Source of the DNA: Verrucomicrobiota bacterium
GTDB lineage: Bacteria; Verrucomicrobiota; Verrucomicrobiia; Limisphaerales; UBA11358
Assembly (NCBI GenBank): GCA_050015635.1
Contig: JBEKBA010000008.1
Location: 15,091-79,090, forward strand
DNA length: 64,000 nucleotides
Reading direction: 5' to 3'
A program made the position numbers and the translations under genes. The first letter of the stretch is position 1; each line of letters begins with the position of its first letter. Positions 3,365 to 36,313 of this stretch are shown piece after piece. Under the pieces are notes generated by a model. The model worked only from the letters and a program-made list of their open reading frames with translations, ran no database searches and had not been told where the DNA came from.

Positions 3365-3455
3365 ATCAATTTGAAAGCAGGGACAAGCGCCACCGGCGAG
3401 ACACGAAGCCCCTTGCGGGGCGGTCCTTGCGGACGGCCACCACTTGCAGCGGGCC
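3365..3455. repeat. Dispersed repeat: ATCARTTTGAAG + GGGAC hairpin module, followed by a CCTTGCGGACGGCCACC module
   Basis: atcaatttgaaagcagggacaagcgcc...ggtccttgcggacggccaccacttgc. Same modules occur at 1158, 36232, 38373 and 45173, and throughout 5.8-25.8 kb. Confidence 0.7.
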
Positions 3456-4230: not shown

Positions 4231-5169
4231 ATGAAGCTCGCCGTAAAAGTTGCGATTTGCCTCGCGGGCGGATTGGCGTTGAACGCCGGTTTGCGCGCGG
4301 CCGATGTCGTGTTGACAAACATGACCGACAATCCCTACGCACCTATTGTCATTCGGAATGTTTTCGGTTTGAACCCGCCGCCGCCGCCCGTCGCGCCGGT
4401 CAAAGACGACGAACCACTGCCGAAAATCACACCCAACGGCATCATGTCCATTTTCGGGCGGTTACAGGTGCTGTTCAAAGTGGACAGCGTGGCCAAGCCG
4501 GGGAAACCGTCCGAGGAGCAATCTTACATCCTCACCGAAGGCCAGCAGCAGGACGACATTGAAATCGTGAAGATCTCTGAAAAGGCGGCCAAGGTGACGT
4601 TCAACAATCACGGCACCATTCAGGAAATAGCCCTGAACGCTGATGACAATACGCCCGCATCCGGAACCACCATGAGTCCCTATCCTCCGAACGAACCCGG
4701 ACACCACCGGTTTGGTGGACGATTCAGTAATCGTGGCTGGAAAAGCGGTTCACCCGGCCCGACGTTCGGAGACTATTCCCCGCCCCCCGGTCAACAGCCC
4801 ATGAGTCAACCGTCCGGCAATCAACAGCCTGACGGTCAACAGCCCAACAGTCAATACCCCGGCAATCAACCGTTCGGCAGTCAACAGCCCAACGATCAAC
4901 AGCCTTACAGTCCGTATGCTACGCCGCAAAATCCCCTGGCCGGCCAGATACCCCCGGGTATGACACCGGAGGAACAAACCGTTGAAATCGAAGCGAATCG
5001 CGAAGCGACCAAACAGCAGGTTATGGATGGAACGATGCCGCCACTTCCCATCACAGAGGTGACGCCGTCCGACGCCGTTGGTCCCGGCGGCAACCCTGTG
5101 TTTGAAAACGGCAATAATCCAATGGGGGACGGCGATACGTCAGGGAATGGCGATACGCCTCCACAATAG
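4231..5169 (+). CDS. Secreted hypothetical protein with P/Q-rich low-complexity repeats
   Basis: Signal peptide MKLAVKVAICLAGGLALNAGLRA. The central region has reiterated GQQP/NQQP/SQQP units. No recognisable catalytic motif. Confidence 0.55.
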   Translation: MKLAVKVAICLAGGLALNAGLRAADVVLTNMTDNPYAPIVIRNVFGLNPPPPPVAPVKDDEPLPKITPNGIMSIFGRLQVLFKVDSVAKPGKPSEEQSYILTEGQQQDDIEIVKISEKAAKVTFNNHGTIQEIALNADDNTPASGTTMSPYPPNEPGHHRFGGRFSNRGWKSGSPGPTFGDYSPPPGQQPMSQPSGNQQPDGQQPNSQYPGNQPFGSQQPNDQQPYSPYATPQNPLAGQIPPGMTPEEQTVEIEANREATKQQVMDGTMPPLPITEVTPSDAVGPGGNPVFENGNNPMGDGDTSGNGDTPPQ

Positions 5170-5272: not shown

Positions 5273-5347
5273 GGCGTGTTCGTCTATCGGTTAGGACGCT
5301 GGATTCTCAATCCGGAAAGACGGGTTCGATTCCCGTACGCGCTACCA
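5273..5347 (+). tRNA. tRNA-Glu (anticodon CUC)
   Basis: Manual cloverleaf: acceptor GGCGTGT/ACGCGCT, D arm GTCT-ATCGGTTA-GGAC, anticodon arm CTGGA-TTCTCAA-TCCGG (anticodon CTC), variable AAAG, T arm ACGGG-TTCGATT-CCCGT, discriminator A and encoded CCA. Length 75 nt. Confidence 0.85.
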
Positions 5348-5799: not shown

Positions 5800-5985
5800 T
5801 TAACCGCCAAGGCAGCGTGACGGTGCACCCAATTATAGAAGATAATCAGGGACGCGGTGGAAGTCCTTGCGGACGGCCAATGCGCCTGACGGCGCGGGAA
5901 TGGGGAAAAAGAAAAATAGACACGGATTAACACGGATGGAAACACCTCTCCCCGACCCTCTCCCCAGAGCGGAGAGGGAGAGTAA
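5800..5985. repeat. Mosaic cluster of short palindromic repeat modules (BIME-like)
   Basis: Order: TTAACCGCCAAGG; GCAGCGTGACGGTGCACCCAATTATAGAAGATAATCAG; GGGACGCGGTGGAA fused to GTCCTTGCGGACGGCCAATGCGCCTGACGGCGCGGGAATGGGG; AGACACGGATTAACACGGA; CTCTCCCCGACCCTCTCCCCAGAGCGGAGAGGGAGA. Each module recurs many times in the window. Confidence 0.85.
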
Positions 5986-6817: not shown

Positions 6818-6968
6818 CTGGCGGTGCGGCCACCATAAAAAGAGACACGGATTAACACGGAAAAGGATTAAACCGCCAAGACGCCAAGAGCGCCAAGGCA
6901 GCGTGACGCTGCACCCAATTATAGAAGATAATCAGGGACGCGGTGGAACGCGTCCGTACCATGATAAA
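6818..6968. repeat. Mosaic repeat cluster ending in a G-REP hairpin
   Basis: ctggcggtgcggccaccataaaaagagacacggattaacacgg...aaccgccaagacgccaagagcgccaaggcagcgtgacgctgcacccaattatagaagataatcaGGGACGCGGTGGAACGCGTCCGTACCatgataaac. Confidence 0.85.
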
Positions 6969-7028: not shown

Positions 7029-8576
7029 ATGAAACTGAAGCGGTCATCGCTGGTTTCCCAAGGGTCACTGAACCGCATACTTGAAGCGGTCAACGAGTCC
7101 TGGAAACGGCTTGATTTTCAGACGGCCATCGAGTTGATGGAACGCGCCAGCCGGCTGGACCCGGCCAATGCCGTCATCCTGTTGGATTTGGGTCGCATGC
7201 ACGGGCTGCGTCACGACCCTGCCGCCGCCGAGCGCTGTTTTGAAAAGGCGGTTCGAATCGCGCCCAAAAAATCCGAGGCGCTCGCGACAGCGGGAAAGCA
7301 AAGCCGTGATTTTGGCAACTTTGCGATGTCCGAGCGTTACTACCTGCGCGCCGTGGAACAAAAGGACGTCACGCCCGAAACCCTCGTCAAATTGGCGGAA
7401 AATTATGAGCGTCTCCGCCGTTTGGAGGACGCCGCCCGATTGGTGGAACGGGCGCTGCATGTGGATGGCGGCTGCGCGGCGGCGTTGCTGCTGTCCGCCA
7501 GGCTCAACCGGCAGTCCGGCCGGTTGGACGAAGCGGAACGGCTGCTCCGATCCATTCCAACCCACTCCGAAAATAACACACGCGCGCAGAGTTGGTATGA
7601 ACTGGGTGGAATTCTTGACCGGCAAGGGCGTTATGACGAAGCCATGTCCGCCTTCCTTGAAGCCAAGGCATTGTTGAATCCCCATGCGGGGCGTTTTCTC
7701 ACTGAACTAAAAATTATCCGCCAGCGCATCACGGCCATGCAGGCAAATATGTCCGCCGAAATGTTGCAACGCTGGTTTGATTTTGGCCGGACGCTACAAC
7801 CCTCCCGGCGGCTGGCGTTGCTGGGAGGTCATCCCCGTTCCGGCACCACTCTGCTGGAGCAGGTTTTGGATTCGCACCCGGACATCGTCTCGGTGGAAGA
7901 AACGACGATTTTTTACGATGACGCCTACCATCCTCTCACGCGCAATTTGCCGGATGACGAACCCATGCTGTCGGTTCTCGAAGCCGCGCAGACTGATGCC
8001 TTGCAACAATCGCGCGCCCACTATTTTCGTTCCGTGGAAGGATTCCTCGGTCAGCCCATCGGCAACCGGCTGTTGATTGATAAAAATCCCTCCCTGACTT
8101 TTTTAATTCCGCTCCTCATCCGCATTTTTCCAGAAATAAAACTGCTCATCGCCCTGCGCGACCCGCGGGATGTGGTTTTAAGTTGTTTCATGCAGCCTTT
8201 GCCGCTCGATCAGGGCAGCTCGGCCTATTTGAGCCTGAAAAGCACCGTTGAAGAATACAGCACGATGATGAGCCTGTGGCAAACCCTTGCGCAATTGATA
8301 AAAAACCCGTTCCTCGAAGTGCGCTACGAGGACATGGTCAATGATCTGGAATCCGTGGCGCGGCGGTCATTAGACTTTCTGGGCGTGCCGTGGGACGCCC
8401 GCGTGTTGGCCTTTGACGAACATGCGCGGCAGAAAGTGGTGCGCTCCCCGACTTACGCCGACGTGACCAAACCGGTCTATAAAGGCGCGGTTGGCCGGTG
8501 GCGGCATTACCAGAAATATCTGGAACCGCATCTGGAAAAGCTGGAGCCGTTCGTCAAGGCGTCCGGGTATGAATAG
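7029..8576 (+). CDS. TPR repeat + sulfotransferase fusion protein, paralogue 1 (ST1)
   Basis: The N-terminal ~230 aa carry TPR-like repeats. The C-terminal half has the PAPS 5'-phosphosulfate loop LGGHPRSGTTLLEQ and the 3'-phosphate motif LIALRDPRDVVLSCF. 515 aa. Confidence 0.9.
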   Translation: MKLKRSSLVSQGSLNRILEAVNESWKRLDFQTAIELMERASRLDPANAVILLDLGRMHGLRHDPAAAERCFEKAVRIAPKKSEALATAGKQSRDFGNFAMSERYYLRAVEQKDVTPETLVKLAENYERLRRLEDAARLVERALHVDGGCAAALLLSARLNRQSGRLDEAERLLRSIPTHSENNTRAQSWYELGGILDRQGRYDEAMSAFLEAKALLNPHAGRFLTELKIIRQRITAMQANMSAEMLQRWFDFGRTLQPSRRLALLGGHPRSGTTLLEQVLDSHPDIVSVEETTIFYDDAYHPLTRNLPDDEPMLSVLEAAQTDALQQSRAHYFRSVEGFLGQPIGNRLLIDKNPSLTFLIPLLIRIFPEIKLLIALRDPRDVVLSCFMQPLPLDQGSSAYLSLKSTVEEYSTMMSLWQTLAQLIKNPFLEVRYEDMVNDLESVARRSLDFLGVPWDARVLAFDEHARQKVVRSPTYADVTKPVYKGAVGRWRHYQKYLEPHLEKLEPFVKASGYE

Positions 8577-9039: not shown

Positions 9040-9369
9040 TCAATTCAATTCCAGCAGCCAGGCAATTTTATCGCGCACGGCCAAAGTTACTCTAGTTTCA
9101 AACTGTCCGGCACGACGTTCCAGCCGGTGATTTTCAACCGAGGCAAGACCCTGGACATTCGCCACGCCTTCATCCGCGCCGGGCAACCAGCGCACGCGCG
9201 GCAACTTCACTTCATAATCACCACCACGAATCTGCGTCGTCAACGGCACGCACACGCATAAGGCGCGCTCCGCGTCCGGATCTTCGCGCGAGACTACCAT
9301 CAGCGGGCGCAGCTTGCCCTTCAGTCCCAGATCCACCCAATATACTTCACCAGGCTTTGGATTTATCAT
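9040..9369 (-). CDS. mazF: MazF/PemK family type II toxin (endoribonuclease)
   Basis: MINPKPGEVYWVDLGLKGKLRPLMVVSRED...CVPLTTQIRGG...VANVQGLASVENHRL is the PemK/MazF pattern (GxxxxVdf...RPxxVvs...vxPxTt). ATG at 9369 is preferred over 9471. Confidence 0.85.
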   Translation of the reverse strand: MINPKPGEVYWVDLGLKGKLRPLMVVSREDPDAERALCVCVPLTTQIRGGDYEVKLPRVRWLPGADEGVANVQGLASVENHRLERRAGQFETRVTLAVRDKIAWLLELN

Positions 9370-9565
9370 AGAAACTTTCCAGCGTGGCGGCGCGCAGTTC
9401 CCAGACTCCGGCGGGCGATTCCATCTTTTCCGGCACGGTGATTTTCGGCGCAGGCATGACCCACCAGCCACCGTTCTCCATCGTTACCAGATACTTTGCG
9501 CCTTTGCGCGTGCCCCGGATGCAGACGCGGCCTTTGTCATCGGCTTTTACCAAAGTAGTTTCCAT
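9347..9565 (-). CDS. mazE: AbrB/MazE/SpoVT-type antitoxin
   Basis: METTLVKADDKGRVCIRGTRKG... looks like a swapped-hairpin-type DNA-binding N-terminus. The 3' end overlaps the mazF start by 23 nt. Confidence 0.7.
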   Translation of the reverse strand: METTLVKADDKGRVCIRGTRKGAKYLVTMENGGWWVMPAPKITVPEKMESPAGVWELRAATLESFYDKSKAW

Positions 9566-9648
9566 GTGGGAACATTCCCACCTTTCGTTGCCATTGTCAA
9601 CGGCTTAATGCTTGAGAGTTGAAGGTGCCGAATACAGCCGGAGGAAAT

Positions 9649-9712
9649 GGGACGCGGTGGAACGCGTCCTTACCATGTCAAATTTTGGTAAGGACGACTT
9701 CCACGTCGTCCC
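9649..9712. repeat. REP doublet: two G-REP hairpins in inverted (tail-to-tail) orientation
   Basis: GGGACGCGGTGGAACGCGTCCTTACC - atgtcaaatttt - GGTAAGGACGACTTCCACGTCGTCCC. The loops are reverse complements (GTGGAA/TTCCAC). The stems differ by compensated changes. Confidence 0.85.
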
Positions 9713-9876
9713 TAATTCGTTTTTATTTTCAAACGTGGTGATTTTTGGGGTATTGCAGCGTTGCTGCAGCCGGGCTGCAGTGCTGCGGCAATGAGATGGC
9801 AGCGTTCACACGCCCCGCCATTGGTTGCCATCTTATACTGCTTGCGCAAAAAACTTCAGGGTCTAATTTTCCATTG
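9687..9876 (+). promoter_or_regulatory. Conserved structured 5' leader of ST2 (leader family shared with ST4 and ST5)
   Basis: REP hairpin + T-rich tract; then hairpin H1 at 9752-9792 (ATTGCAGCG..CTGCAG-CCGGG-CTGCAG..CTGCGGCAAT); hairpin H2 at 9794-9833 (AGATGGCA/TGCCATCT); then TATACTGCTTGCGCAAA and ATG at 9877. Confidence 0.6.
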
Positions 9877-11418
9877 ATGAGACGACTGCAGTTAGTTTCC
9901 CAGGGTTCCTTGAGCCGGATGATCAAGGCGGCGGATGAATCCTGGGGACGTGGCGACTCCCGGCAGTGCTTTGAGCTGCTGGAACGCGCCAGCCGGCTGG
10001 ACCCGGGCAATCCCAAAATGCAGCTGTATCTGGGTCAGCGGTATGGGTTGCGTTACAACTACGAGGCAGCCGAACACTGCTTTGAACAGGCCGTGCGGAT
10101 TGCACCGGATAAAACGGAGACTTTGGCCATTGCCGGGCGGCTATCCCTCGATTTCGGCAGTCATCAAATGGCCGAAGATTATTTCCGGCGCGCCGTGGAA
10201 GAAAAAGACGCCCCGGCGGAAACCTGCGCCCGACTCGCGGAAGTTTATGAACGCCTTAATCGCTTGGAAGACGCCACCAAACTGGTGGATCAAGCCTTGC
10301 AATTGGATGACAACTGCGCCATGGCACAACTGACCCGTGCCAGATTATATGGCCGCACCGGTCGATTGAAGGAAGCGGAACAACTTCTGCGGAGGTTTAC
10401 CACAACCGATTCGCATACGCAGATACGTCGCCATTACGAACTGGGCAAAAATCTGGACCAGCAAGGACGTTATGACGAAGCGATGGCCGCGTTCCTCGAA
10501 GCCAAGGCGCTCTTACTGCCAACCGCGAAACCGCTCATCGCTCAAATGAAGGTGTTTCGTGACCGCCTAAATGAATTGAAAACCAACATCTCTGCTGAAA
10601 TACTGCAACGTTGGTTTGATTGCGCCCCGGCGTTCCGACCCTCTCATCGCCTGGCTTTTCTGGGCGGTCATCCCCGTTCCGGGACAACCTTATTGGAACA
10701 GATTTTGGATTCGCATCCAGACATCGTTTCGGTGGAAGAAACGGCGATTTTTCTCGAAGACGCCTGTGTTCCCTTCAAACGCGGCTTTCCAGAGAATACA
10801 CCCACATTGTCAATCCTTGAAACGGCACAGACGAGCGCATTGCAGACATCGCGCATGAATTATTTCCGCTCCGTGGAAGGATTTCTGGGCAAACCCATCG
10901 GCAACCGGCTGTTGATTGACAAAAATCCTTCGCTGACTTTTTTGATACCCGCGCTCATCCGCGTGTTTCCTGAGGTAAAACTGATCATCGCCCTGCGCGA
11001 TCCGCGTGACGTATGTTTGAGTTGTCTCATGCAACCCTTGCTGCCACTCCGTCAGGGCAACTCGGCCTATTTGAGTCTGGAGAGTACCGTTGAGGAATAC
11101 AGCGCCATGATGAGCCTGTGGCAAACCCTCGCTCCCCTGATAAAGAACCCGTTCCTGACCGTGCGCTACGAGGACATGGTCAATGATCTGGAATCCGTGG
11201 CGCGGCGGACACTGGACTTTCTGGGCGTGCCGTGGGATGCAAGCGTGCTCAGTTTTGACCAACACGCGCGGCAGAAAGTGGTGCGCTCGCCCACTTACGC
11301 CGACGTGACCCAACCGGTCTATAAAGGGGCCATTGGCCGGTGGCGTAATTACCAGAAATATTTTGAACCGCATCTGGAAAAGCTTGAGCCGTTTGTGAAG
11401 GCGTTCGGGTATGAGTAA
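9877..11418 (+). CDS. TPR + sulfotransferase fusion protein, paralogue 2 (ST2)
   Basis: MRRLQLVSQGSLSRMI... aligns with the ST1 start. Motifs LGGHPRSGTTLLEQ and IIALRDPRDVCLSC are present. The TTG-initiated upstream extension (9745) is judged non-coding. Confidence 0.88.
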   Translation: MRRLQLVSQGSLSRMIKAADESWGRGDSRQCFELLERASRLDPGNPKMQLYLGQRYGLRYNYEAAEHCFEQAVRIAPDKTETLAIAGRLSLDFGSHQMAEDYFRRAVEEKDAPAETCARLAEVYERLNRLEDATKLVDQALQLDDNCAMAQLTRARLYGRTGRLKEAEQLLRRFTTTDSHTQIRRHYELGKNLDQQGRYDEAMAAFLEAKALLLPTAKPLIAQMKVFRDRLNELKTNISAEILQRWFDCAPAFRPSHRLAFLGGHPRSGTTLLEQILDSHPDIVSVEETAIFLEDACVPFKRGFPENTPTLSILETAQTSALQTSRMNYFRSVEGFLGKPIGNRLLIDKNPSLTFLIPALIRVFPEVKLIIALRDPRDVCLSCLMQPLLPLRQGNSAYLSLESTVEEYSAMMSLWQTLAPLIKNPFLTVRYEDMVNDLESVARRTLDFLGVPWDASVLSFDQHARQKVVRSPTYADVTQPVYKGAIGRWRNYQKYFEPHLEKLEPFVKAFGYE

Positions 11419-11420
11419 GG

Positions 11421-11670
11421 GGTAGGGACGACCTGCTGGTCGTCCCGAGGTAGGGCGTTGCTGCTGCAACGCCGTTCGGACGCGCGGCATCCGCCTTCGC
11501 CCGAGCTATGGCGGGACAGGGCGCGTCCCTACCATGCCGTTCCCAATTCGATTGAAAAAGGAAACACAACCTGCCGGTCGTCCAAAGGTAGGGCGTTGCT
11601 GCTGCAACGCCGTTCGGACACGCGGCATCCGCCTTCGCCGAGCTATGGCGGGACAGGGCGCGTCCCTACC
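11421..11670. repeat. Two copies (one full, one 5'-truncated) of a ~113 nt composite palindromic element (R2) with GGTAGGGACG/CGTCCCTACC termini
   Basis: Unit 1 is 11421-11533 and unit 2 is 11571-11670. A third full copy lies at 13273-13387. The unit contains GTAG-hairpins GGGACGACC-TGCT-GGTCGTCCC and GGCGTTGC-TGCT-GCAACGCC. Confidence 0.85.
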
Positions 11671-11722: not shown

Positions 11723-13270
11723 ATGAAACGACCGCAGTTGGTTTCCGCCGGTTCCTTGAACCGGATGATTCAGGCCGCCGAGGAGTGCTGCATGCGCGGT
11801 GACTTTCAACAAGGCATCGAAATTTTCGAACGGGCCAGCCGTCTGGATCCAGCCAACTGGCGGCTCCGGATTCAGTTGGGGCGCGCTCACGGTTATAATT
11901 TCGACTACACGGCAACCGAACGCTGTTTTGAACAGGCGGTGCGCATTGCACCGCATAAAGCGGAGGCCCTGGCGACTGCGGGGCAGCAATGGATGAGTTC
12001 CGGCAGACCGCAAATGGCCGAAGCTTACTTCCGGCGCGCCCTGGAACAAAAAGACGCCACGGCGGACACCGTCGCCCGGCTGGCGGAACTCTACGAGCGG
12101 CTTCACCGCACGGAAGATGCCGCCGCCATGGTGGAGCGCTGCCTTCAATTGGACAACGCCTGCCCGTTGGCCCGGTTCACCCAAGCAAAATTGCACCGGC
12201 AGGCGGGGCGACTGGCCGAAGCTGAACAAGTCTTGCGCCCCATCCTGACGACGGTAGATCGCGAGTTGCGAGTCCGGGGCCTCTATGAACTGGGCGGGAT
12301 TTACGACCGGCAGGGGCGTTATGACGAAGCCATGACCGCCTTTCTCGAAGCCAAGGCGCTGCTGCTTCCGGACGCACCGCCATTGCTCGCCCAATTGCAA
12401 TCAATCAACAGTTACTTTAAGGAGATGCAAAACAACGTCTCGGCTGAACTGTTGCAGCGTTGGTCCGATTCCGGCCGGGAGCTACTTCAACCACCTCATC
12501 GTCTGGCCTTTCTGGGCGGCCATGCCCGTTCCGGGACAACTTTTTTGGAACAGGTGCTCGATTCACATCCGGACATCGTCTCAGCGGAAGAAACAAGTAT
12601 TTTTTTTTACAAGACCTACCTTTCTCTCACGCACAGTATGCCACCGGGCACATCCATGCTGGCGGCACTCGATACCGCGCCCGTTGCGTCGTTGCGGCAG
12701 GCTCGTGAACACTATTTTCGTTCGATGGAATTGTTCTTTGGCAACCCCATCGGCCATCGCCTGCTGATTGACAAAGATCCCAACTATCAAATTATGATCC
12801 CGGCTTTTGTCCGCATTTTTCCGGAAATAAAACTTTTGTTGGCGATCCGCGACCCGCGCGATGTCGTCTTGAGCTGTTTCGTCCTGCCGCATTGGCCCCT
12901 CCGCGCGGCCACCGTGACCTTTCTGAATCTTGAAGCCACGGTTAGATCCTATACCCGGGTGATGGGGATATGGAGGACGCTAAAGCCGCTGATCAAAAAT
13001 CCCTGTCTCGAAGTGCGCTACGAAGACATGGTGGACGATCTGGAATCCGTCGCGCGGCGGACTCTGGACTTCCTCGGCATGCCGTGGGATGCCCGCGTGC
13101 TCGCCTTTGACGAACATGCCCGGAAAAAGCTGGTGCGCTCCCCGACTTACGCCGACGTGACGCAGAAGGTTTATAAGCGCGCCCGGGGGCGCTGGCACAA
13201 TTACAAAAAATATCTCGAACCGCATTTGGAGAAACTGGAGCCGTTCGTCAAGGCGTTTGGGTATGAGTAA
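11723..13270 (+). CDS. TPR + sulfotransferase fusion protein, paralogue 3 (ST3)
   Basis: 515 aa with motifs LGGHARSGTTFLEQ and LLAIRDPRDVVLSCF. Its closest relative is the decayed copy ST5. Confidence 0.9.
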   Translation: MKRPQLVSAGSLNRMIQAAEECCMRGDFQQGIEIFERASRLDPANWRLRIQLGRAHGYNFDYTATERCFEQAVRIAPHKAEALATAGQQWMSSGRPQMAEAYFRRALEQKDATADTVARLAELYERLHRTEDAAAMVERCLQLDNACPLARFTQAKLHRQAGRLAEAEQVLRPILTTVDRELRVRGLYELGGIYDRQGRYDEAMTAFLEAKALLLPDAPPLLAQLQSINSYFKEMQNNVSAELLQRWSDSGRELLQPPHRLAFLGGHARSGTTFLEQVLDSHPDIVSAEETSIFFYKTYLSLTHSMPPGTSMLAALDTAPVASLRQAREHYFRSMELFFGNPIGHRLLIDKDPNYQIMIPAFVRIFPEIKLLLAIRDPRDVVLSCFVLPHWPLRAATVTFLNLEATVRSYTRVMGIWRTLKPLIKNPCLEVRYEDMVDDLESVARRTLDFLGMPWDARVLAFDEHARKKLVRSPTYADVTQKVYKRARGRWHNYKKYLEPHLEKLEPFVKAFGYE

Positions 13271-13272
13271 GG

Positions 13273-13387
13273 GGTAGGGACGACCTGCAGGTCGTCCCGA
13301 GGTAGGGCGTTGCTGCTGCAACGCCGTTCGGACGCCCGGCATCCGCCTTCGCCGAGCTATGGCGGGACAGGGCGCGGCGTCCCTACC
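13273..13387. repeat. R2 composite palindromic element, third copy
   Basis: Near-identical to 11421-11533 and begins 3 nt after the ST3 stop, exactly as unit 1 does after the ST2 stop. Confidence 0.85.
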
Positions 13388-13398
13388 ATGATAAACCT

Positions 13399-13609
13399 GG
13401 TAAGGACGACTTCCACGTCGTCCCTAATTCGTTTTTATTTTCAAACACGGTGATTTTTGGAGAATTGCAGCGTCGCTGCAGCCGGGCTGCAGTGCCGCGG
13501 CAATGAGATGGCAATCCGCGGCAATGAGATGGCAATCAGGTTTTACGCCTCGCCATGGGTTGCCATCTTATACTGCTTGCGCAAAGAGCATCGCCTTCTA
13601 AAATTGTCC
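13399..13609 (+). promoter_or_regulatory. Conserved structured 5' leader of ST4
   Basis: Same architecture as 9687-9876: REP hairpin 13399-13424 + TAATTCGTTTTTATTTTC, H1 at 13464-13504, 21-nt tandem duplication at 13496-13537, H2 at 13527-13568 (AGATGGCAA/TTGCCATCT), then TATACTGCTTGCGCAAAG. Confidence 0.6.
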
Positions 13610-15160
13610 ATGATGAGACGAACACCAATAACTTCTCCGGGTTCGTTGAAGCAGCTGCTCCAGGCGGCGGAAGCGGCACGCGAACGCATGGATTTTCAGA
13701 CGTGTATCAAGACGCTGCAAACAGCCAGCCGTCTCGCGCCTGCCAACGTCGGCGTTCTCCTCCAACTCGGCCGCATTCATGGGTTGCGCTACGACTATAC
13801 CGCCGCTGAACGCAGCTTTGAACAGGCTCTGCGTTTTGCTCCCCGGAAAACGGAGATGCTCACGGCCATTGCGGAGCATTGCCAGAATTTCCGCAACCCG
13901 GACATTGCGGAGCGTTATCTCCGGCGCGCGCTCGAACAGCCGGACGCGACGCCGCAGGCCTGCATCAAGCTCGCCGAACTTTGCGAACGGCTCCGGCGGC
14001 TGCCCGAGGCTGAGGAACTGGTGGAACGGGCGTTGAAGCTTGATCCGGCTTATCCGGCGGCGCTGCTGGTTCGCGCCCGACTGGAACGTCTGTCCGGGAG
14101 ACTGGAACCGGCGGAGGCCGTGCTGCGCTCGTTCATCACCCAACCCATTCCTAATACCTGGATTCATGCCCAAGCCTGGTATGAACTGGGCCATACTCTG
14201 GATCGTCAGGGAAAATTTGATGAAGCGATGACGGCATTCCTTGAAGCCAAGACCTTGCAGCGACCACAGGCGGACAAAATATTTGACGCCCAAAAAATAA
14301 TACAAACCAGTTACAAGGTGATGGAATCGAATATTTCCGCCGGGCAATTCCGACGCTGGTTCGAAAACGGCCCGGCATTGTCACCGGCCCGACGAGTTGC
14401 CTTGCTCTGCGGTTACGCCCGTTCCGGCACAACCCTGCTGGAGCAGGTGCTGGATGCCCATCCGGACATTATTTCAGCGGAAGAAACCACCATTTTTTTG
14501 GACGATGCCTTTGCCCCGCTCAGACGAAATTCGCCCCCGAACTCCGACATGCTGACGGTTCTGGAAACCGCCGACAACCCGGCGTTGCAGCAATCGCGCG
14601 CGGCTTATTTTGACTCCATGAATTTGTCCATCGGGAGCGCCGTCGCCAACCGGCTGTTGCTGGACAAAAACCCCATGTTCACCGGCATGATCCCGGCGTT
14701 CATCCGCATCTTTCCCGAAACCAGGTTTCTCATCGCCTTGCGCGACCCGCGCGACGTGGTCTTGAGTCGTTTCATGCAAGCCCTGCGGACGACCCCATTC
14801 ACCACGGCCTTTTTGAGCCTGGAAGGAACCGTAGAAGATTACGCCGTCATGATGAGCGCATGGAGGAAAATGGCGCCGCTGATGCCCGCTCCTTACCTGC
14901 CAGTGCGTTACGAAGACATGGTGGACGATTTGGAATCCGTCGCGCGCAAAACACTGGATTTTCTGGGTGTTACCTGGGTAAACCACGTGCTGGGGTTTGA
15001 TGAACATGCCCGAAAAAAACTGGTGCGTTCCCCCGCCTACTCCGATGTGACCCAGCCCGTCTATAAGCGCGCCCGGGGGCGCTGGCGCAATTACCAGAAA
15101 TTTTTGGAGCCGCATCTGGAAAAGCTGGAGCCGTTTGTGAAGGCGTTTGGATATGAATAG
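13610..15160 (+). CDS. TPR + sulfotransferase fusion protein, paralogue 4 (ST4, most divergent)
   Basis: MMRRTPITSPGSLKQLL... aligns with the other starts. Motifs CGYARSGTTLLEQ and LIALRDPRDVVLSRF are present. ATG at 13610 is preferred over the TTG at 13457. Confidence 0.88.
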   Translation: MMRRTPITSPGSLKQLLQAAEAARERMDFQTCIKTLQTASRLAPANVGVLLQLGRIHGLRYDYTAAERSFEQALRFAPRKTEMLTAIAEHCQNFRNPDIAERYLRRALEQPDATPQACIKLAELCERLRRLPEAEELVERALKLDPAYPAALLVRARLERLSGRLEPAEAVLRSFITQPIPNTWIHAQAWYELGHTLDRQGKFDEAMTAFLEAKTLQRPQADKIFDAQKIIQTSYKVMESNISAGQFRRWFENGPALSPARRVALLCGYARSGTTLLEQVLDAHPDIISAEETTIFLDDAFAPLRRNSPPNSDMLTVLETADNPALQQSRAAYFDSMNLSIGSAVANRLLLDKNPMFTGMIPAFIRIFPETRFLIALRDPRDVVLSRFMQALRTTPFTTAFLSLEGTVEDYAVMMSAWRKMAPLMPAPYLPVRYEDMVDDLESVARKTLDFLGVTWVNHVLGFDEHARKKLVRSPAYSDVTQPVYKRARGRWRNYQKFLEPHLEKLEPFVKAFGYE

Positions 15161-15362
15161 TCACGAAGCAGCGTGACGGTGCTTGCGCACGGCCAATGCG
15201 CCTGACGGCGCGGGAATGGGGAAAAAGAAAAAGAGACACGGATTAACACGGAAAGGGATTTAACCGTCAAGGCAACGTGACGCTGCACCCGATTATAGAA
15301 GATAATCAGGGAAGCGGTGGAAGTCCTTGCGGACGGCCACCAGTCCCTACCCTGTCATACCT
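15161..15362. repeat. Mosaic repeat cluster downstream of ST4
   Basis: tcacgaagcagcgtgacggtgc (same junction as after ST1 and ST5), then CGGCCAATGCGCCTGACGGCGCGGGAATGGGG, AGACACGGATTAACACGGA, AACGTGACGCTGCACCCGATTATAGAAGATAATCAG, and GGGAAGCGGTGGAAGTCCTTGCGGACGGCCACCAGTCCCTACC. Confidence 0.85.
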
Positions 15363-15486
15363 GGTAAGGACGACTTCCACGTCGTCCCTAATTCGTTTTT
15401 ATTTTCAAACACGGTGATTTTTGGAGAATTGCAGCGTCGCTGCAGCCGGGCTGCAGTGCCGCGGCAATGAGATGGCAATCTCACTG
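15363..15486 (+). promoter_or_regulatory. Conserved 5' leader of ST5 (shortened version)
   Basis: Identical to the ST4 leader through H1 (15428-15468) and GAGATGGCAATC. The 3' arm of H2 and the TATACT/TTGCGCAA segment are missing, and the leader is fused to the ATG at 15487. Confidence 0.55.
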
Positions 15487-16942
15487 ATGAAACGACCGCA
15501 GTTGGTTTCCGCCGGTTCCTTGAACCGGATGATTCAGGCCGCCGAGGAGTGCTGCATGCGCGGTGACTTTCAACAAGCCATCGAAATTTTCGAACGGGCC
15601 AGCCGGCTTGATCCAGCCAACTGGCGGCTCCGGATTCAGTTGGGGCGCGCTCACGGTTATAATTTTGATTACGCGGCAGCCGAACGCTGCTTTGAACAGG
15701 GGGTTCGCATTGCACCGCATAAAGCGGAGGCGCTGGCATCTGCCGGGCGGCTCTCCATTGATTTCGTACGTCATCAAATGGCCGAAGATTATTTCCGGCG
15801 CGCCCTGGAACAAAAAGACGCCACGGCGGACACCGTCGCCCGGCTGGCGGAGCATTACGAACGCCTGCACCGCGCGGAGGAAGCCGTCGCCATGGCCGAA
15901 CGCGCCCTGCAACTGGACAACGCCTGCCCTTTGGCCCGGCTCACCCGGGCAAAACTGCACCGGCAGGCGGGGCGACTGGCCGAAGCTGAACAAGTCTTGC
16001 GCCCCATCCTGACGGCAGCGGATCGCGAGTTGCGAGTCCGGGGCTTCTATGAACTGGGTGGGATTTACGACCGTCAAGGGCGTTATGACGAAGCCATGAC
16101 CGCATTCTTTGATGCCAAGGCGCTGCTGCTTCCCGACGCGCCGCCGTTGCTCGCCCAATTGCAATCCATTATCAGCTACTTGAAGGAGATGGAAAATGGC
16201 GTCTCGGCGGAACTGTTGCAGCGTTGGTTCGATTTTGGCAGGGAACTGCAACCACCTCATCGTCTGGCTTTTCTGGGCGGCCATGCCCGTTCCGGGACGA
16301 CCCTGCTGGAACAGGTTTTAGATTCACATCCGGACATTGCCTCGGCGGAAGAAACCAGTATTTTTTACAACCAAGCCCAGGTTCTTCTCACGCGCGGCTT
16401 GCCGCAAGGCACGCCCATGGTGGCGGCGCTCGACAGCGCGCCCGTCGAGTCGTTGCGGCAGAGCCTTGATTATTGCCTTTGTCCGGTTCTTTCCGGAAAT
16501 AAAGCTTTTGGTGGCATTGCGGGATCCGCGCGATGTGGTCTTGAGTTGTTTCATGCAACCACATTGGCCCCTCGGTACAGGCAACGTGACCTTTCTGAAT
16601 CTTGAAGCCACAGTCAGAACCTACGCCCGGGTGATGGGGATATGGAGGACGCTAAAGCCGCTGGTTAAAAACCCGTTCCTCGAAGTGCGCTACGAGGACA
16701 TGGTGGACGATCTGGAATCCGTGGCACGACGGACGCTGGATTTTCTGGGCGTCCCGTGGGATGCGCGTGTGCTCGCCTTTGACGAACATGCGCGGCAAAA
16801 ACTGGTGCGCTCGCCGACTTACGCCGATGTGACCCAGCCCGTCTATAAGCGCGCCCGGGGCCGTTGGCACAATTACCGGAAATATCTGGAACCGCATCTG
16901 GAAAAGCTTGAACCCCTGGTCAAGGCGTTCGGGTATGAATAG
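15487..16942 (+). pseudogene. TPR + sulfotransferase paralogue 5 (ST5), disrupted by an internal deletion/frameshift
   Basis: Two ORFs (15421-16605 and 16337-16942) together align with ST3. Between ...SLRQ and FPEIK, ST3 has 120 nt and ST5 has 31 nt, a net 89-nt loss that shifts the frame and removes the YFRS...LLIDK(N/D)P segment. Confidence 0.8.
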
Positions 16943-17437
16943 TCACGAAGCAGCGTGACGCTGCACCCAATTATAAAACAGACACGGATTGGCACGGATG
17001 AACACGGATAAAAATAAGAAGGTATTCGGGGTGGACGCGTGAAATGTAGAAGGAAGAATGATGAATGAAGAGTAGATAAAAACGGGAAGGCGGCCAATAG
17101 CGAGACGCCCGCGCTCCCCAAAAGCAGTAGAGAAATGCACCTGAACGGTGGGGGGATGGGGGATAGGGTCCAGGAAATCGGGAAAAGGAGAAATCAGGCA
17201 CGAATTACACGAAAGAAAACGAAGCATTTTAATTTAGACACGGATTACACGAATTAACACGGAAGGATTTAACCGCCAAGACGCCAAGAACGCCAAGGCA
17301 AAACGAATTGAAGTGGGACGCGGTGGAACGCATCCCTACCATGAAATCAATGCGCCTGACGGCGCCGGGGTGGGGATCACGGACGCCGCATCCATCGTCG
17401 CCAAGGCTATGACGGGACAAGGCGCGGCGTCCCTACC
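16943..17437. repeat. Mosaic repeat cluster; first ~288 nt duplicate of 8577-8864
   Basis: See 8577-9010. It continues with the G-REP GGGACGCGGTGGAACGCATCCCTACC (17315-17340) and an R2-related half-unit ending GGCGCGGCGTCCCTACC (17437). Confidence 0.85.
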
Positions 17438-17438
17438 T

Positions 17439-17816
17439 TTACGATATGATTTCAACGGCGCGATGTGAAATGCGCGAGTCAAATGTTGCCAGTCTCATCT
17501 GGTGTGCCGCGGCCAATTCGGCAAGATAAAAATCGGTCACCTGTTCCGAGTTGTGTGCGGAACTTTTCAAAGCATTCAGGTCATCCGGCAGAAAAAGAGA
17601 TTTGTAGCGGGAAATAAAATCACTCAATGCCTCCCGCGCGACCGGCATGGGAACACCGTAAATTTTGGGATGGGTGACAATTCTCAAGAAGCCGGTTTCA
17701 CAAAGCGGACAAGTGGCCAATGATTTTCCAGCCAGCCATTTATCAGCGGCGGCATATTGTGTATGCGAATCCAAAATCGCCGCAATCAGAAAATTTACGT
17801 CGAGAAGGTATCTCAT
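17439..17816 (-). CDS. vapC: PIN-domain toxin (VapC-like)
   Basis: MRYLLDVNFLIAAILDSH... is the PIN N-terminal acidic motif (LLDxN). 125 aa, with a 4-nt overlap with the upstream antitoxin ORF. Confidence 0.8.
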   Translation of the reverse strand: MRYLLDVNFLIAAILDSHTQYAAADKWLAGKSLATCPLCETGFLRIVTHPKIYGVPMPVAREALSDFISRYKSLFLPDDLNALKSSAHNSEQVTDFYLAELAAAHQMRLATFDSRISHRAVEIIS

Positions 17817-18070
17817 GGCAGGCCGGCCAGAGCCGCACGAACCTGCTCCGTTGTGACCGCCGGGCCGCCGGTAAGAATGGAATGCTTCCCTCTGCGTCTT
17901 AACAGACGAATTTGATGCCGGTGCGGTTTTGGCTTTTCAAGGCGCACCAGGATCAGCCGGCCATCGCCATCCGGTTCAACGGAGACAACGTCGCCTGTGT
18001 CAATATGAGCCTGTTTGCGGGCCTTGGCCGGAATGACCATCTGGCCGCGACCATAAATTGTCGCATGCAT
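17813..18070 (-). CDS. vapB: AbrB/SpoVT-type antitoxin (VapB-like)
   Basis: MHATIYGRGQMVIPAKARKQAHIDTGDVVSVE... is the AbrB/MazE-like looped-hinge motif. ATG at 18070 is preferred. Confidence 0.75.
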   Translation of the reverse strand: MHATIYGRGQMVIPAKARKQAHIDTGDVVSVEPDGDGRLILVRLEKPKPHRHQIRLLRRRGKHSILTGGPAVTTEQVRAALAGLP

Positions 18071-18148
18071 GGGCCAAACATAACGCAAGCATTGCTTACA
18101 TACAACAAAAGAATTGATGCCGCGCCTATGGCGCTGAGAAAGAAGTTT

Positions 18149-18212
18149 GGGACGCGGTGGAACGCATCCCTACCATGATAAAATTTGGTAGGGACATCGC
18201 GCTGCGATGTCC
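18149..18212. repeat. REP doublet (inverted pair of G-REP hairpins)
   Basis: GGGACGCGGTGGAACGCATCCCTACC - atgataaaattt - GGTAGGGACATCGCGCTGCGATGTCC. The second hairpin has a different but fully self-complementary stem (GGACATCGC/GCGATGTCC). Confidence 0.85.
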
Positions 18213-18242: not shown

Positions 18243-18650
18243 TTAAAGCAGACCGCGATGAATCAATTCATCGGCCAGCATTTTCGGCGAAACAATCTTC
18301 ACACCTTGAACTGTTTTGCCAAAATACACACCAAAGTCCTGCTGATCACCGGTGAGCAGATGGGTTGCGCCTCCGGCAACGGCCCCGCCCAGAATCGGAA
18401 CATCCTTCAACGGCAATTCCACTTTCAAATCAGTAACGAGGGCGGGAACCCATTCACATTTTCCGATCAAAGAATCCAGATGGCGCAATGCCGCGGGGAA
18501 TTTTACCTCAAGATTCCGGCGCGCCTCCTCGACGGCGTAGGCACTGGTGATGCACCCGCCATGTTTGAACAACACCTTTAAAAAGGCGCGCATCCGGCTT
18601 TGCAGTGGCGCGCCGGAAAAGAGAATGTTCGCATCCAGAAACACCCTCAT
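18243..18650 (-). CDS. PIN-domain protein (toxin of a second PIN/AbrB pair)
   Basis: MRVFLDANILFSG...HLLTGDQQDFG is PIN-like (FLDANIL start and a conserved late acidic residue). It overlaps the upstream antitoxin ORF by 4 nt. Confidence 0.7.
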   Translation of the reverse strand: MRVFLDANILFSGAPLQSRMRAFLKVLFKHGGCITSAYAVEEARRNLEVKFPAALRHLDSLIGKCEWVPALVTDLKVELPLKDVPILGGAVAGGATHLLTGDQQDFGVYFGKTVQGVKIVSPKMLADELIHRGLL

Positions 18651-18912: not shown

Positions 18913-19737
18913 GTGGCGGATGCGGGGAAGAAGAAAGTTTGGGACGCGGTGGAAGTCCTTGCGGACGGCCACCAGTCCCTACCGTGACAATCTGGTAAGG
19001 ACGACTTCCACGTCGTCCCTGACTTGATTAAGAAGATAAATGGGACGCGGTGGAAGGACGACGGCCACCAGTCTCTACCATGTCGTCCCCACCGACAATT
19101 CGTGAATCATTCCTTGATACGGCCAGTCTTCCGGGCGGGTAACGAGTTTTTTGCGCACCGGATTCTCCCGGACATACAGCCACTTTGCCATGTATTGACG
19201 GGCATCACGCAGACGATGGTGAAAGCCCGACCGCTGCCATGCCCATGGTTGATTCACATGTCGGCGGTTGAACCGGCTCTTCCAATACGCCACCCATGTT
19301 TCAATGGTGAAGGCCAGATCGCGCGGCGCGCAAAACACATGCAAATGATCCGGCATCAACACATATTGGCCAACCAACCACGCATCCGCCGCCCGCCAGA
19401 TTTCCTTGAGTGATTCGTGAACCAATGGTTGCGCCAGCCATGGAATTCGATCTTTTGTGTTCACCGTCAACAAGATAATATTCGGGCCGGAGAGGGAAAT
19501 TTTTACGCCGCGGGAGGGAGTCTTGCGACCTGGAATCCGGTCAGGTGAAAAACGTTCAACCATGATCAAATTTATTAAACGTGGCGGATGCGAGGAAGAA
19601 GAAAGTTTGGGACGCGGTGGAAGTCCTTGCGGACGGGCAGCGTGACGCTGCACCCGCACCTTGCGGTGGGCCACCAACGGACGCCGCATCCATCGTCGCC
19701 AAGGCTATGACGGGACAAGGCGCGGCATCCCTAACCT
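18913..19737 (-). mobile_element. RAYT unit: HUH/Y1 transposase gene bracketed by REP-containing direct repeats
   Basis: 56-nt direct repeats at 18913-18968 and 19581-19636 (55/56 identical) flank CDS 19075-19563. Both flanks carry G-REP hairpins and related modules. Confidence 0.65.
19075..19563 (-). CDS. REP-associated tyrosine transposase (RAYT) / IS200-like HUH Y1 transposase
   Basis: HUH motif in YVLMPDHLHVFCAP. Tyr motif in AKWLYVRENPVRKKLV. ATG at 19563 is preferred, because the ORF-track extension to 19689 runs through repeat sequence. Confidence 0.8.
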   Translation of the reverse strand: MVERFSPDRIPGRKTPSRGVKISLSGPNIILLTVNTKDRIPWLAQPLVHESLKEIWRAADAWLVGQYVLMPDHLHVFCAPRDLAFTIETWVAYWKSRFNRRHVNQPWAWQRSGFHHRLRDARQYMAKWLYVRENPVRKKLVTRPEDWPYQGMIHELSVGTTW

Positions 19738-23330: not shown

Positions 23331-23666
23331 GACGGACACGGATGGACACAGATTTTTTAACCACACCTTGCGGTGGGCCAATGCGCCTGACGGGCAGCGT
23401 GACGCTGCACACCTTGCGGTGGGCCAAGATTATAAAAATAGAAATTAGACACGAATTAACACGGAGCATTTTTAGACGCGAATTACACGAATTAACACGA
23501 ATTGACTCAAACAAGGATGCCAAGGCAGCGGTGCTTGCGCACTACCACCATGGACGCGGTGGAACGCGTCCCTACCATGAGGATCAACGTTTCTCGGTGA
23601 TTGCAAAATCACAGACGGTCCCGGATGGACATAGATTTTTTAACCACGGATGAACACGGATTTTTG
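23331..23666. repeat. Mosaic repeat cluster
   Basis: GGACACGGATGGACACAGATTTTTTAACC; GCAGCGTGACGCTGCAC; AGACACGAATTAACACGGA and variants; G-REP GGACGCGGTGGAACGCGTCCCTACCATGA (23552-23580); GGATGGACATAGATTTTTTAACCACGGATGAACACGGA. Confidence 0.85.
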
Positions 23667-24089: not shown

Positions 24090-24235
24090 GGTAAGGACGA
24101 CTTCCACGTCGTCCCTGATTTGATTAAAAGAGAAATAATAAATGGGACGCGGTAAAAGTCCTTGCGGACGGGCAGCGTGACGCTGCACCCAATTATAGAA
24201 AAAACAGCCAATGGACACGGATGAACATAGATTTT
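24090..24235. repeat. Mosaic repeat cluster
   Basis: GGTAAGGACGACTTCCACGTCGTCCC (24090-24115); GGGACGCGGTAAAAGTCCTTGCGGACGGGCAGCGTGACGCTGCACCCAATTATAGAA; GGACACGGATGAACATAGATTTTT. Confidence 0.85.
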
Positions 24236-36231: not shown

Positions 36232-36313
36232 GTATCAGTTTGAAGATAGGGACAGCGCGCTACACTGTCCGTAATTGGGTGCAGCATCAAGCTGCCCGTC
36301 CGCAAGGATTGCC
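36232..36313. repeat. Dispersed repeat modules (ATCAGTTTGAAG + GGGAC hairpin; reverse-complement W and P modules)
   Basis: atcagtttgaagataGGGACAGcgcgctacaCTGTCCgtAATTGGGTGCAGCatcaaGCTGCCCGTCCGCAAGGAttgcc. Confidence 0.75.

Follow-up and report, generated by a model that had tools for sequence, protein, structure and literature searches.

The 64,000-nucleotide stretch of Verrucomicrobiota DNA analysed here (contig JBEKBA010000008.1; this whole stretch is called the window) very probably carries a system of repetitive extragenic palindromes (REPs) and their REP-associated tyrosine transposase (RAYT), made up of a "REPtron", dispersed REPs and clusters resembling bacterial interspersed mosaic elements (BIMEs). 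The elements are short palindromic DNA repeats in which a GGTA[G/A] tag lies 5' against a hairpin with the foot GGGAC/GTCCC and, in the main class, the loop TTCCAC. The evidence supports the minus-strand gene at 19075-19563 as encoding the cognate HUH/Y1 tyrosine transposase. Systems of the REP/RAYT kind are regarded as single-strand transposases that became domesticated and keep populations of short repeats in bacterial genomes; almost all experiments on them, and most surveys, concern Gammaproteobacteria. The window, together with 80 loci from other genomes, documents a REP/RAYT lineage that is well populated and co-diversifying, in a branch of the Verrucomicrobiota that has been little studied. 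A first-pass annotation, made from the letters of the window, had proposed a REP-like family of tagged hairpins with compensatory stems and inverted doublets, and had named the 19075-19563 product as its RAYT. The former proposal is borne out by enrichment, covariation and the flanking of RAYT genes, and the latter by the HUH/Y1 fold, the relation to PDB entry 4ER8, the flanking elements and a hairpin class that tracks the protein tree.

The doublet at 9649-9712, which reads GGGACGCGGTGGAACGCGTCCTTACC-ATGTCAAATTTT-GGTAAGGACGACTTCCACGTCGTCCC, consists of two 7-bp hairpins in inverted orientation, with the tags pointing inward, the loop GTGGAA/TTCCAC and a 12-nt spacer. Its left half is a type A element (9649..9674, minus strand; GGTAAGGACGCG-TTCCAC-CGCGTCCC when read on that strand; 43.7 bits with the covariance model), and its right half, also matched by the covariance model, is a type B element (9687..9712, plus strand; GGTAAGGACGAC-TTCCAC-GTCGTCCC). 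The spacer between the inward tags of this tail-to-tail dimer occupies 9675..9686. The two halves are identical in tag, foot (GGAC/GTCC) and loop, and differ in the inner stem, GCG/CGC in A versus GAC/GTC in B, that is, by two compensatory double changes. The tags had been annotated as GTAG; the letters read GTAA in both halves (GGTAA with the preceding G). Since the base replacing the last G of the tag cannot pair, the stem of the GTAA copies is 7 bp long and not 8. As single-stranded DNA, the whole 64-nt doublet can fold on either strand as a single long hairpin interrupted by two internal mismatch loops (DNA dG −23.5 kcal/mol, z −7.4). It lies between a MazE/MazF-like minus-strand operon (9040-9565) and a plus-strand gene. 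The term "tail-to-tail" had been used for such doublets in agreement with published TT usage, in which the GTAG tags face inward (PMC3733652). The core GGTAGGGACGCG-TTCCAC-CGCGTCCC given in the annotation stands as the family consensus but not as a literal copy, the best copy (23551-23576) ending in ...GTCCA.

Thirty full or partial elements were curated by hand in the window, in place of two tagged-hairpin scans of which one was too strict and the other too loose; at least 20 had been counted earlier. They comprise five copies of type A, five of type B, two full copies, one variant and five partial arms of type C, two copies of type D, four full and one degenerate of type E, one of type F, three of type H and one doubtful element (36245). 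All 30 are intergenic, in a window with 16.5% non-coding DNA, one element running over the last codons of the RAYT gene. The earlier remark that nearly all copies lie between 5.8 and 25.8 kb agrees with the curated set, 27 of the 30 being found there. Of the intergenic bases of the window, 52% fall in this region (binomial P=1.3e-5, a value that overstates the significance because local duplications make the copies non-independent). The string GTA[AG]GGAC was observed 17 times in the window against 0.82 expected, and GTAGGGAC-N8-24-GTCC nine times against 0.03. Perfect GGAC...GTCC hairpins with a stem of at least 7 bp numbered 12, compared to 0.11 in shuffles, and 10 of the 12 were tagged. The covariance model of the TTCCAC class gave 19 matches at E<0.1, all within 5.8-24.2 kb; its ten top matches include window sequences used in its building. 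GC skew across the window was uninformative on leading versus lagging strand.

The pairing of the stems was examined in copies chosen, against circularity, on tag, left arm and loop only. Complete Watson-Crick pairing of the inner 3 bp was seen in 52 of 61 copies, with nine triplets represented, and six of the nine non-complementary copies are a variant with a 7-nt loop that still pairs. Over 27 distinct sequences the covariation score was 0.372 compared to 0.141 in shuffles, a value reached in none of 500 shuffles, and the pairing was lost when the partner columns were slid. The foot and the loop are nearly invariant, and G-T pairs occur in the stems. A metagenome scan in which the two inner pairs were left free gave at least 172 matches on at least 120 contigs; among the matches listed, the free pairs were complementary in 156 of 172. 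Only 4 of the 120 contigs listed encode a RAYT homologue, the other 116 being without one, and the elements are therefore dispersed away from the RAYT gene. Among the same listed matches, pairs with outward tags and a spacing of 10-40 nt predominate.

The RAYT/TnpA-REP-like gene (19075..19563, minus strand) is single-copy in the window and encodes a 162-aa product with the motifs MPDHLHVF (containing the HUH motif DHLH), WQ...FHHRLR and YVRENP (the tyrosine motif). With Pfam giving nothing, its assignment draws on NCBIfam, on a profile search of the PDB and on a comparison of folds. The sole family match is NCBIfam REP_Tyr_transpos (NF047646; E=5e-19, 68.6 bits), which is also matched by all 21 aligned homologues (best E 2.5e-20). 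The sole relative found in the PDB is 4ER8, the E. coli TnpA-REP bound to a REP hairpin, with an E-value of 0.002 for the single sequence and 8.6e-11 for the 21-sequence profile. In the window protein, DHLH, WQ, H, R, Y130 and N134 are the counterparts of the HUH motif, WQ, H101, R104, Y115 and N119 in the E. coli enzyme. W94, Q95, H101, R104, Y115 and N119 are all matched, and E100 is replaced by His; these six matched residues are reported to serve GTAG contact or catalysis in the E. coli enzyme (PMC6006769). HMH and YIYINP of 4ER8 align with DHLH and YVRENP, both of which are (near-)invariant in the 21 homologues. The AlphaFold model of the RAYT (predicted local distance difference test 81, predicted template modelling score 0.78) has 4er8_A as its top Foldseek match (E=7e-8, TM 0.68), followed by the IS200, IS608 and ISDra2 TnpA proteins. 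At least 967 homologues of about 158 aa were found, the organism-named ones being from Verrucomicrobiota; some carry the JGI label "REP element-mobilizing transposase RayT" and the NCBI label hypothetical.

Directly downstream of the gene, three elements alternate in orientation, namely type C at 18941-18983 (minus), type B at 18994-19019 (plus) and the type C variant at 19042-19079 (minus), and the stop codon of the gene is the TAG of the GGTAG tag of this last element. The upstream side has a partial type C arm (19609-19636) and a type E element in degenerate form (19679-19735). The gene also stands between the two copies (18914-18970 and 19582-19638) of a direct repeat, about 57 nt long, of which the type C arm is part.

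A profile-guided scan with one genome per species yielded the 80 homologue loci, mostly with Verrucomicrobiota titles and many assigned to Limisphaerales or "subdivision 3". In 46 of these loci the RAYT homologue has a GTA[GA]-tagged hairpin no more than 350 nt away, and in 37 it has them on both sides. Over the 80 loci, the density of tagged hairpins was 2.78 per kb near the homologue versus 0.156 per kb more than 1 kb away (about 18-fold). In the 46 flanked loci, GGTA[GA]-tagged hairpins fell with distance from 4.75 through 0.52 and 0.16 to 0.055 per kb, the value found 5-10 kb from RAYT genes in these related genomes. Across genomes the tag is constant and the hairpin varies: one class reads GGTAG-GGGACGAG-TTCCAC-CTCGTCCC, with inner stems that also appear as ...GGA...TCC, ...GAT...ATC and ...GCT...AGC, and another reads GGTAG-GGCGGAGC-TGCC-GCTCCGCC.

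In a neighbour-joining tree, the proteins fall into three groups that match the hairpin class. The first, with the GGGAC foot and TTCCAC loop, holds the window RAYT and its closest relatives, L081 and L082; the second, large group has a GGGCG/GGGCA foot and TGC loops; the third is without tagged hairpins. A hairpin class that tracks the RAYT tree is the co-variation expected of cognate pairs. In the two closest relatives (RAYT 76-81% identical), GCG/GAC heterodimers occur again and point the same way with respect to the gene. In L029, L040, L050 and L072, too, the RAYT homologue has the alcohol-dehydrogenase gene (22260-23312 in the window) nearby, which fits vertical inheritance of the RAYT gene. 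Two RAYT copies within 20 kb occur in 1 of the 80 loci, and several metagenome-assembled genomes carry two loci.

Two further observations concern these loci. Around the RAYT gene, L050 (2034-13523) and L072 (7172-10765) contain long same-orientation tandem arrays of GGTAG-GGCGGAGC-TGCC-GCTCCGCC with a period of about 36-64 nt, L050 holding about 40 copies in 19 kb. The loci of the untagged clade (L009, L010, L013-L015, L019, L025, L026, L034, L038, L062, L063 and L067) carry another conserved sequence immediately past the stop codon of the RAYT gene, GGCTCGCG(G/A)GGACGCTCGCCCCACC or AGGGCTCGACGGAGTCTCGCC, and this is a possible alternative cognate repeat without a GTAG tag.

A mechanism for the window system can be modelled on the TnpA-REP enzymes of E. 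coli, Stenotrophomonas and Marinomonas, by analogy with which the RAYT protein would bind, cleave and mobilise the REPs. The enzyme would bind the folded hairpin on the tag-bearing single strand, for example at a replication fork, with the tag and the foot or loop acting as recognition and guide elements. Cleavage would take place at a dinucleotide close by, by way of a 5'-phosphotyrosine link, and the strands would be rejoined. Over time, REPs or REP pairs would be copied into other intergenic sites and next to existing REPs, giving rise to alternating-orientation clusters and mosaics. Some copies were multiplied by local segmental duplication as well. In the TnpA-REP systems studied, cleavage occurs at a nearby CT dinucleotide and the strands are joined, the tetranucleotide serving both for recognition and as guide (PMC8266576). 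A CT stands directly 3' of the stem in all type B copies (GTCGTCC|CT), which as a cleavage site is suggestive only. Each element type has a fixed strand in the window, with the tag on the minus strand for A, C and E and on the plus strand for B, D, F and H, irrespective of the orientation of the flanking genes. Strand-specific insertion into single-stranded DNA, as documented for IS200/IS605 (PMC6006769), would fit this regularity, and local duplication could equally produce it.

Several observations weigh against a REP/RAYT system in the window. The RAYT score of 68.6 bits is below the NCBIfam curated cut-off of 80, the product has no match to Pfam Y1_Tnp (PF01797) or any other Pfam family even at E up to 10, and Y1_Tnp is matched by only 10 of the 21 homologues, and weakly. 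These missed thresholds reflect the models and not the defining motifs, the RAYT clade being divergent. Tagged hairpins are absent from 34 of the 80 homologue loci. The focal doublet and all type B copies carry GTAA tags, which are outside the published degenerate forms; the E. coli TnpA-REP tolerates no change in GTAG, and the Stenotrophomonas and Marinomonas enzymes tolerate some (PMC8266576). No pair of filled and empty sites was found among the metagenome loci, the syntenic loci or the paralogous intergenic regions of the window. Megablast of the window against 120 metagenome loci returned nothing. The closest RAYT homologue is 82% identical. The syntenic loci are about 70-83% identical in genes and too diverged for their intergenic DNA to be alignable, and the paralogous intergenic regions are mosaics with no clean empty site. 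The window is also unusually dense, with 1.35 elements per kb at 5.8-25.8 kb versus 0.05-0.16 per kb at 1-10 kb from RAYT genes elsewhere, and the copies in this genome were counted over 64 kb, REPs being typically dispersed in more than 100 copies per genome. Finally, several copies lie inside local duplicated blocks. One is the 138-nt repeat D10, which holds the type B copies 9687, 13399 and 15363 and extends toward the paralogous sulfotransferase genes, two of its copies being 97% identical; the other is the D16 block, in which elements D, H and E are repeated together at 11421, 11559 and 13273.

These blocks lead to an alternative in which the hairpins were spread passively, by segmental duplication or gene conversion of cassettes copied along with the tandem paralogues encoding tetratricopeptide repeat (TPR) and sulfotransferase domains, without a dedicated transposase. 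Five such paralogues span 7-17 kb, D10 and D16 account for three type B copies and for the repeated D-H-E block, and the copies of any one element type all point the same way in the window, all in keeping with this account. However, copies are found by unrelated genes outside the array (6935, 17315, 18149/18187, 18941-19079, 23551, 24090 and 42.8-43.0 kb). The left partner of the type B copies varies (A, E, C, C and none), so whole cassettes were not simply copied. Many unrelated contigs and genomes also contain the family, where it shows compensatory variants and is tightly linked to RAYT genes. Local duplication raises the local count, yet it cannot account for the whole family, given the copies by unrelated genes, the varying left partner of B and the presence across genomes; as a full explanation we consider it very improbable. 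Another account, in which the doublets are miniature inverted-repeat transposable elements (MITEs), left over from a DDE insertion sequence as inverted repeats and moved in trans by its transposase, agrees with the doublets being short inverted repeats that fold into one long hairpin. The doublet ends show no target-site duplications, the partners vary, some hairpins stand on their own, no DDE transposase gene was seen in those open reading frames (ORFs) of the window that were examined, and across genomes it is a HUH/Y1 gene that is consistently found beside the elements. This origin is extremely improbable, and a MITE of a DDE element was rejected for want of target-site duplications and of a matching insertion sequence.

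The hairpins could also be mainly host regulatory elements under selection, such as terminators or mRNA-stabilising 3' hairpins, with the RAYT-like gene incidental. In other bacteria, REPs may act as mRNA stabilisers or transcription attenuators (background cited in PMC3733652), the type D elements lie 3 nt past the stop codons of two paralogues, a T-rich run follows three type B copies, and the stems contain G-T pairs. The first-pass annotation had gone further and read the TTCCAC hairpin followed by CTAATTCGTTTTTATTTTC as a functional intrinsic terminator, a reading that finds no support in geometry, in the terminator scan, in the distribution of T-runs or in gene context. The T-run in CTAATTCGTTTTTATTTTC begins 8 nt past the stem, and a terminator consensus scan of the window called none of the type B copies, with 32 terminator-like sites in total versus 29.8 expected, hence no excess. 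The run accompanies three of the five type B copies (9687, 13399 and 15363), all in the D10 repeat upstream of the paralogues. The copies at 18994 and 24090 are without it, the next letters being CTGAYTTGATTAA... and another REP arm. At 9687, no plus-strand transcript ends, since the minus-strand MazE/MazF-like operon lies on one side and the plus-strand gene on the other. An intrinsic terminator was accordingly rejected on the 8-nt offset, where a stem and U-run 0-2 nt apart are needed, and on the divergent-gene context at 9687, and intrinsic termination as a role for the host has no support. A known RNA family was likewise rejected, Rfam at the gathering threshold giving only a tRNA in the window. 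The elements moreover occur in both orientations relative to neighbouring genes, and a regulatory role leaves unexplained both their enrichment at RAYT genes and the hairpin class that tracks the tree. We therefore hold selection for host regulation to be very improbable as the main explanation.

The REP/RAYT system of the window resembles several known ones. The E. coli REP/BIME system with TnpA-REP (RAYT group 2, subclass 2.2; 4ER8) shares with it a GTAG-type tetranucleotide directly 5' of a GC-rich hairpin. In both, the elements are intergenic, alternating and clustered, with heterodimers of two stem variants, and a single-copy HUH/Y1 gene is flanked by REPs. Unlike the E. coli REPs, the short hairpins of the window are perfect, without a conserved bulge, and have a conserved 6-nt loop and often a GTAA tag. 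The two proteins show a fold-alignment identity of 16%, with YIYINP in E. coli versus YVRENP in the window, and the hosts are a member of the Proteobacteria and one of the Verrucomicrobiota, respectively. The REPINs (paired REP elements) of Pseudomonas and Stenotrophomonas, the SMAG elements and the group 3 RAYTs (subclass 2.5) have in common with the window short perfect GTAG palindromes, foldable inverted pairs and conserved loop positions. The group 3 RAYTs are, like the window RAYT, about 150-160 aa long with DH[LF]H and WQ motifs (PMC6006769), and RAYT and REP class co-vary there as well. They differ in their tyrosine motif, YI[VI]ANP versus YVxENP in the window clade. In contrast to REPINs, the partners in the window are heterogeneous (A/B, A/F, E/B and C/B) with no fixed REPIN unit evident, and the tail-to-tail spacers are very short (10-12 nt). 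The TnpA proteins of IS200/IS605 (IS608, ISDra2) have the same HUH/Y1 fold as the RAYT (Foldseek E ~1e-4), and their recognition of single-stranded DNA hairpins, their 5' guide tetranucleotide and the absence of target-site duplication are as proposed for the window system. Unlike in IS200/IS605, the window gene is single-copy and not bounded by distinct left and right ends as a mobile unit, and the hairpins are dispersed alone in many copies.

Closest in taxonomy are the GTAG-17 to GTAG-20 families of Opitutus terrae (Di Nocera et al. 2013, PMC3733652), from the same phylum, the likeness being one of description. That species likewise has several GTAG REP families and head-to-head (HH) and tail-to-tail (TT) dimers with very short spacers (PMC3733652). 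It belongs to the Opitutales, whereas the window host belongs to the Limisphaerales, and many of its copies are intragenic, compared to none in the window. GTAG REPs, HH/TT dimers, heterodimers, clusters, REPtrons and RAYT genes overlapped by flanking REPs have thus already been described, with REPtrons reported for most host species of GTAG repeats, and GTAG repeats have been reported in the Planctomycetes-Verrucomicrobia-Chlamydiae (PVC) superphylum, where Opitutus terrae is "highly enriched" (PMC3733652). No account of the particular repeat sequence of the window was found in the literature searched, an exact-sequence match being only coincidental.

The current understanding of REPs is unchanged by the window system. 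The RAYT clade, with its signature of about 158 aa, DHLH, [W/F]Q...HHRLR and YVxENP, is possibly an unclassified RAYT subclass. The 2018 phylogenomic RAYT survey started from Pfam Y1_Tnp matches (PMC6006769), and because the clade is near-invisible to Y1_Tnp and below the NCBIfam cut-off, published classifications may have missed it. A wider reading is conceivable, to which we give slightly less than even weight, in which the clade is large, restricted to Verrucomicrobiota among organism-named homologues and missed by published classifications, and has co-diversified with at least two hairpin classes and an untagged branch, as an independent, long-lived REP-RAYT partnership outside Proteobacteria and Cyanobacteria. 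The fixed strand of each element type in the window would then fit insertion that is strand-specific and coupled to replication. The clear signature of the elements (tag, GGGAC foot, TTCCAC loop and freely covarying inner stem) makes them a convenient data set on which parts of a REP the transposase reads. Such repeats probably break metagenome assemblies in Verrucomicrobiota, and recognising them would improve annotation, in view of the spurious ORFs that they create. One such repeat-made ORF is at 9612-9794 (plus strand; "...RRKWDAVERVLTMSNFGKDDFHVVPNS...", e.g. "...WDAVERV..."), and the N-terminal extensions of called homologues read through REPs, e.g. P0003 "VVGTGSTPSHSF".

The remaining elements of the window are as follows. 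The short hairpins have stems of 7-9 bp and loops of 3-6 nt, and the other types are longer, bulged hairpins. GGTAG stands directly at the foot in three of the five type A copies and in types C, D, E, F and H; the tag is GGTAA in all five type B copies and in the type A copy at 9649, and GGTAC in the type A copy at 6935. Besides the copy in the focal doublet, type A is found on the minus strand at 6935..6960 (hairpin scan and covariance model), 17315..17340 (GGTAGGGATGCG-TTCCAC-CGCGTCCC), 18149..18174 and 23551..23576 (GGTAGGGACGCG-TTCCAC-CGCGTCCA, nearest to the consensus), all matched by the covariance model. The copy at 18149 is the left half of the doublet 18149-18212, whose right half is the type F element at 18187..18212 (plus; GGTAGGGACATCGC-GCT-GCGATGTCC). 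The other type B copies, all plus-strand and matched by the covariance model, lie at 13399..13424 and 15363..15388, as right halves of doublets with type E (13329-13387) and type C (15309-15351), respectively, at 18994..19019, as the central one of the three clustered elements that directly follow the RAYT gene, and at 24090..24115, with a partial type C arm (24144-24171) 28 nt on. The positions 9687, 13399, 15363, 18994 and 24090 annotated for the GAC/GTC stem were all correct, as were GACC-TGCW-GGTC at 11421 and 13273 and GGACATCGC-GCT-GCGATGTCC at 18187.

Type C is a long bulged hairpin of 39 nt. Its full copies are at 15309..15351 (minus; GGTAGGGACTGGTGGCCGTCC-GCAA-GGACTTCCACCGCTTCCC) and 18941..18983 (minus; hairpin scan and curation), and its variant, in which the TAG of the tag is the RAYT stop codon, at 19042..19079 (minus; GGTAGAGACTGGTGGCCGTCGTCCTTCCACCGCGTCCC). 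Partial arms on the minus strand are found at 5849..5877 (GGGACGCGGTGGAAGTCCTTGCGGACGG, fused to another repeat module; family D13, covariance model) and, by curation, at 19609-19636, 24144-24171, 42800-42841 and 42945-42988. Type D occurs on the plus strand at 11421..11446 (GGTAGGGACGACC-TGCT-GGTCGTCCC), 3 nt past the stop codon of a sulfotransferase paralogue, and at 13273..13298 with the loop TGCA, both matched by the covariance model. Type H is a tagged hairpin with a different foot (GGTAG-GGCGTTGC-TGCT-GCAACGCC), present on the plus strand at 11449..11473 (GGTAGGGCGTTGC-TGCT-GCAACGCC), 11587-11611 and 13301-13325, and falls into one class with the GGGCG/TGC hairpins seen beside RAYT homologues elsewhere. 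Type E, a long imperfect hairpin closed by GGGACGC.../...GCGTCC, is found on the minus strand at 11478..11533 (closed by GGGACGCG.../...CGCGTCC; covariance model, family D16) and, by curation, at 11616-11670, 13329-13387 and 17381-17437, with the degenerate copy upstream of the RAYT gene at 19679-19735 (minus). A further variant had been annotated at 36247; the hairpin is present (36245..36272, plus; GATAGGGACAG-N9-CTGTCC), but with its GATA tag, 6-bp stem and 9-nt loop it is a doubtful relative, and it was missed by the covariance model.

Five tail-to-tail doublets occur in the window, with spacers of 10-12 nt (ATGTCAAATTTT, ATGATAAAATTT, ATGATAAACCT, CTGTCATACCT and GTGACAATCT); those at 13388-13398, 15352-15362, 18175-18186 and 18984-18993 are related to the one at 9675-9686. 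Since the partners differ between sites, the doublet is not one fixed repeated unit within the window. Head-to-head pairs are formed by 18994/19042 and 24090/24144, and D-H-E clusters are present too.

Immediately upstream of the repeat-dense 5.8-25.8 kb lies a tRNA-Glu gene (anticodon CTC; 5273-5347, plus), and this region, with toxin-antitoxin (TA) modules and tandem paralogues beside a tRNA gene, has the look of a variable island. The five tandem TPR and Sulfotransfer_3 paralogues (plus strand; 7029-8576, 9745-11418, 11723-13270, 13457-15160 and 15421-~16942) are 60-90% identical in patches, and the fifth is in two ORFs (15421-16605 and 16337-16942), probably through a frameshift. Among the repeats lie TA modules at 9040-9565 (minus; PemK/MazF with an AbrB/MazE-like ORF at 9347-9565), 17439-18088 (minus; PIN with MazE) and 18243-18650 (minus; a weak PIN match). 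The first is 91.6% DNA-identical to part of L040, far above the neighbouring genes, a level of identity that suggests recent horizontal movement.

Other repeat modules share the intergenic regions. The module CAGCGTGACGCTGCACCC forms a small hairpin, GCAGCG-TGA-CGCTGC, usually followed by AATTATAGAAGATAATC, and occurs at 5813, 6899, 8585, 15273, 16951, 19638, 23395, 24173 and 43077 (plus) and at 36277 (minus), that is, on the plus strand at 9 of 10 sites; three copies scored as a sigma-70-like promoter match, GTGACG-18-GATAAT. On the plus strand are also found GGCCAATGCGCCTGACGGCGCGGG (5875, 15191, 21454, 24856 and 42693), AGACACGGATTAACACGGA with short repeats of the CACGGAT/CACGAAT type (5918, 6843, 8866, 15234, 16980 and 23447) and the palindromic CTCTCCCCAGAGCGGAGAGGGAG (5958 and 8981). 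GTCCTTGCGGACGG, a junction in the form of a 4-bp hairpin whose loop is TTGC, lies at 3423, 5863, 15323, 18955, 19623, 24158, 24844, 42959 and 43062 (plus) and at 36296 (minus). It continues in three ways: CCACCAGTCCCTACC completes REP type C, and CCAATGCGCC... and GCAGCGTGACG... enter other modules, from which the intergenic repeats appear as a mosaic of recombined modules. The related small hairpins CACC-TTGC-GGTG and GTGC-TTGC-GCAC take the same position as GTCCTTGCGGACGG. Elsewhere in the window, ORF 4231-5169 contains about nine copies of a 15-nt tandem repeat (4788-4922, plus) encoding a Q/P-rich low-complexity stretch, and a giant ORF of 2903 aa is located at 49272-57983 (minus).

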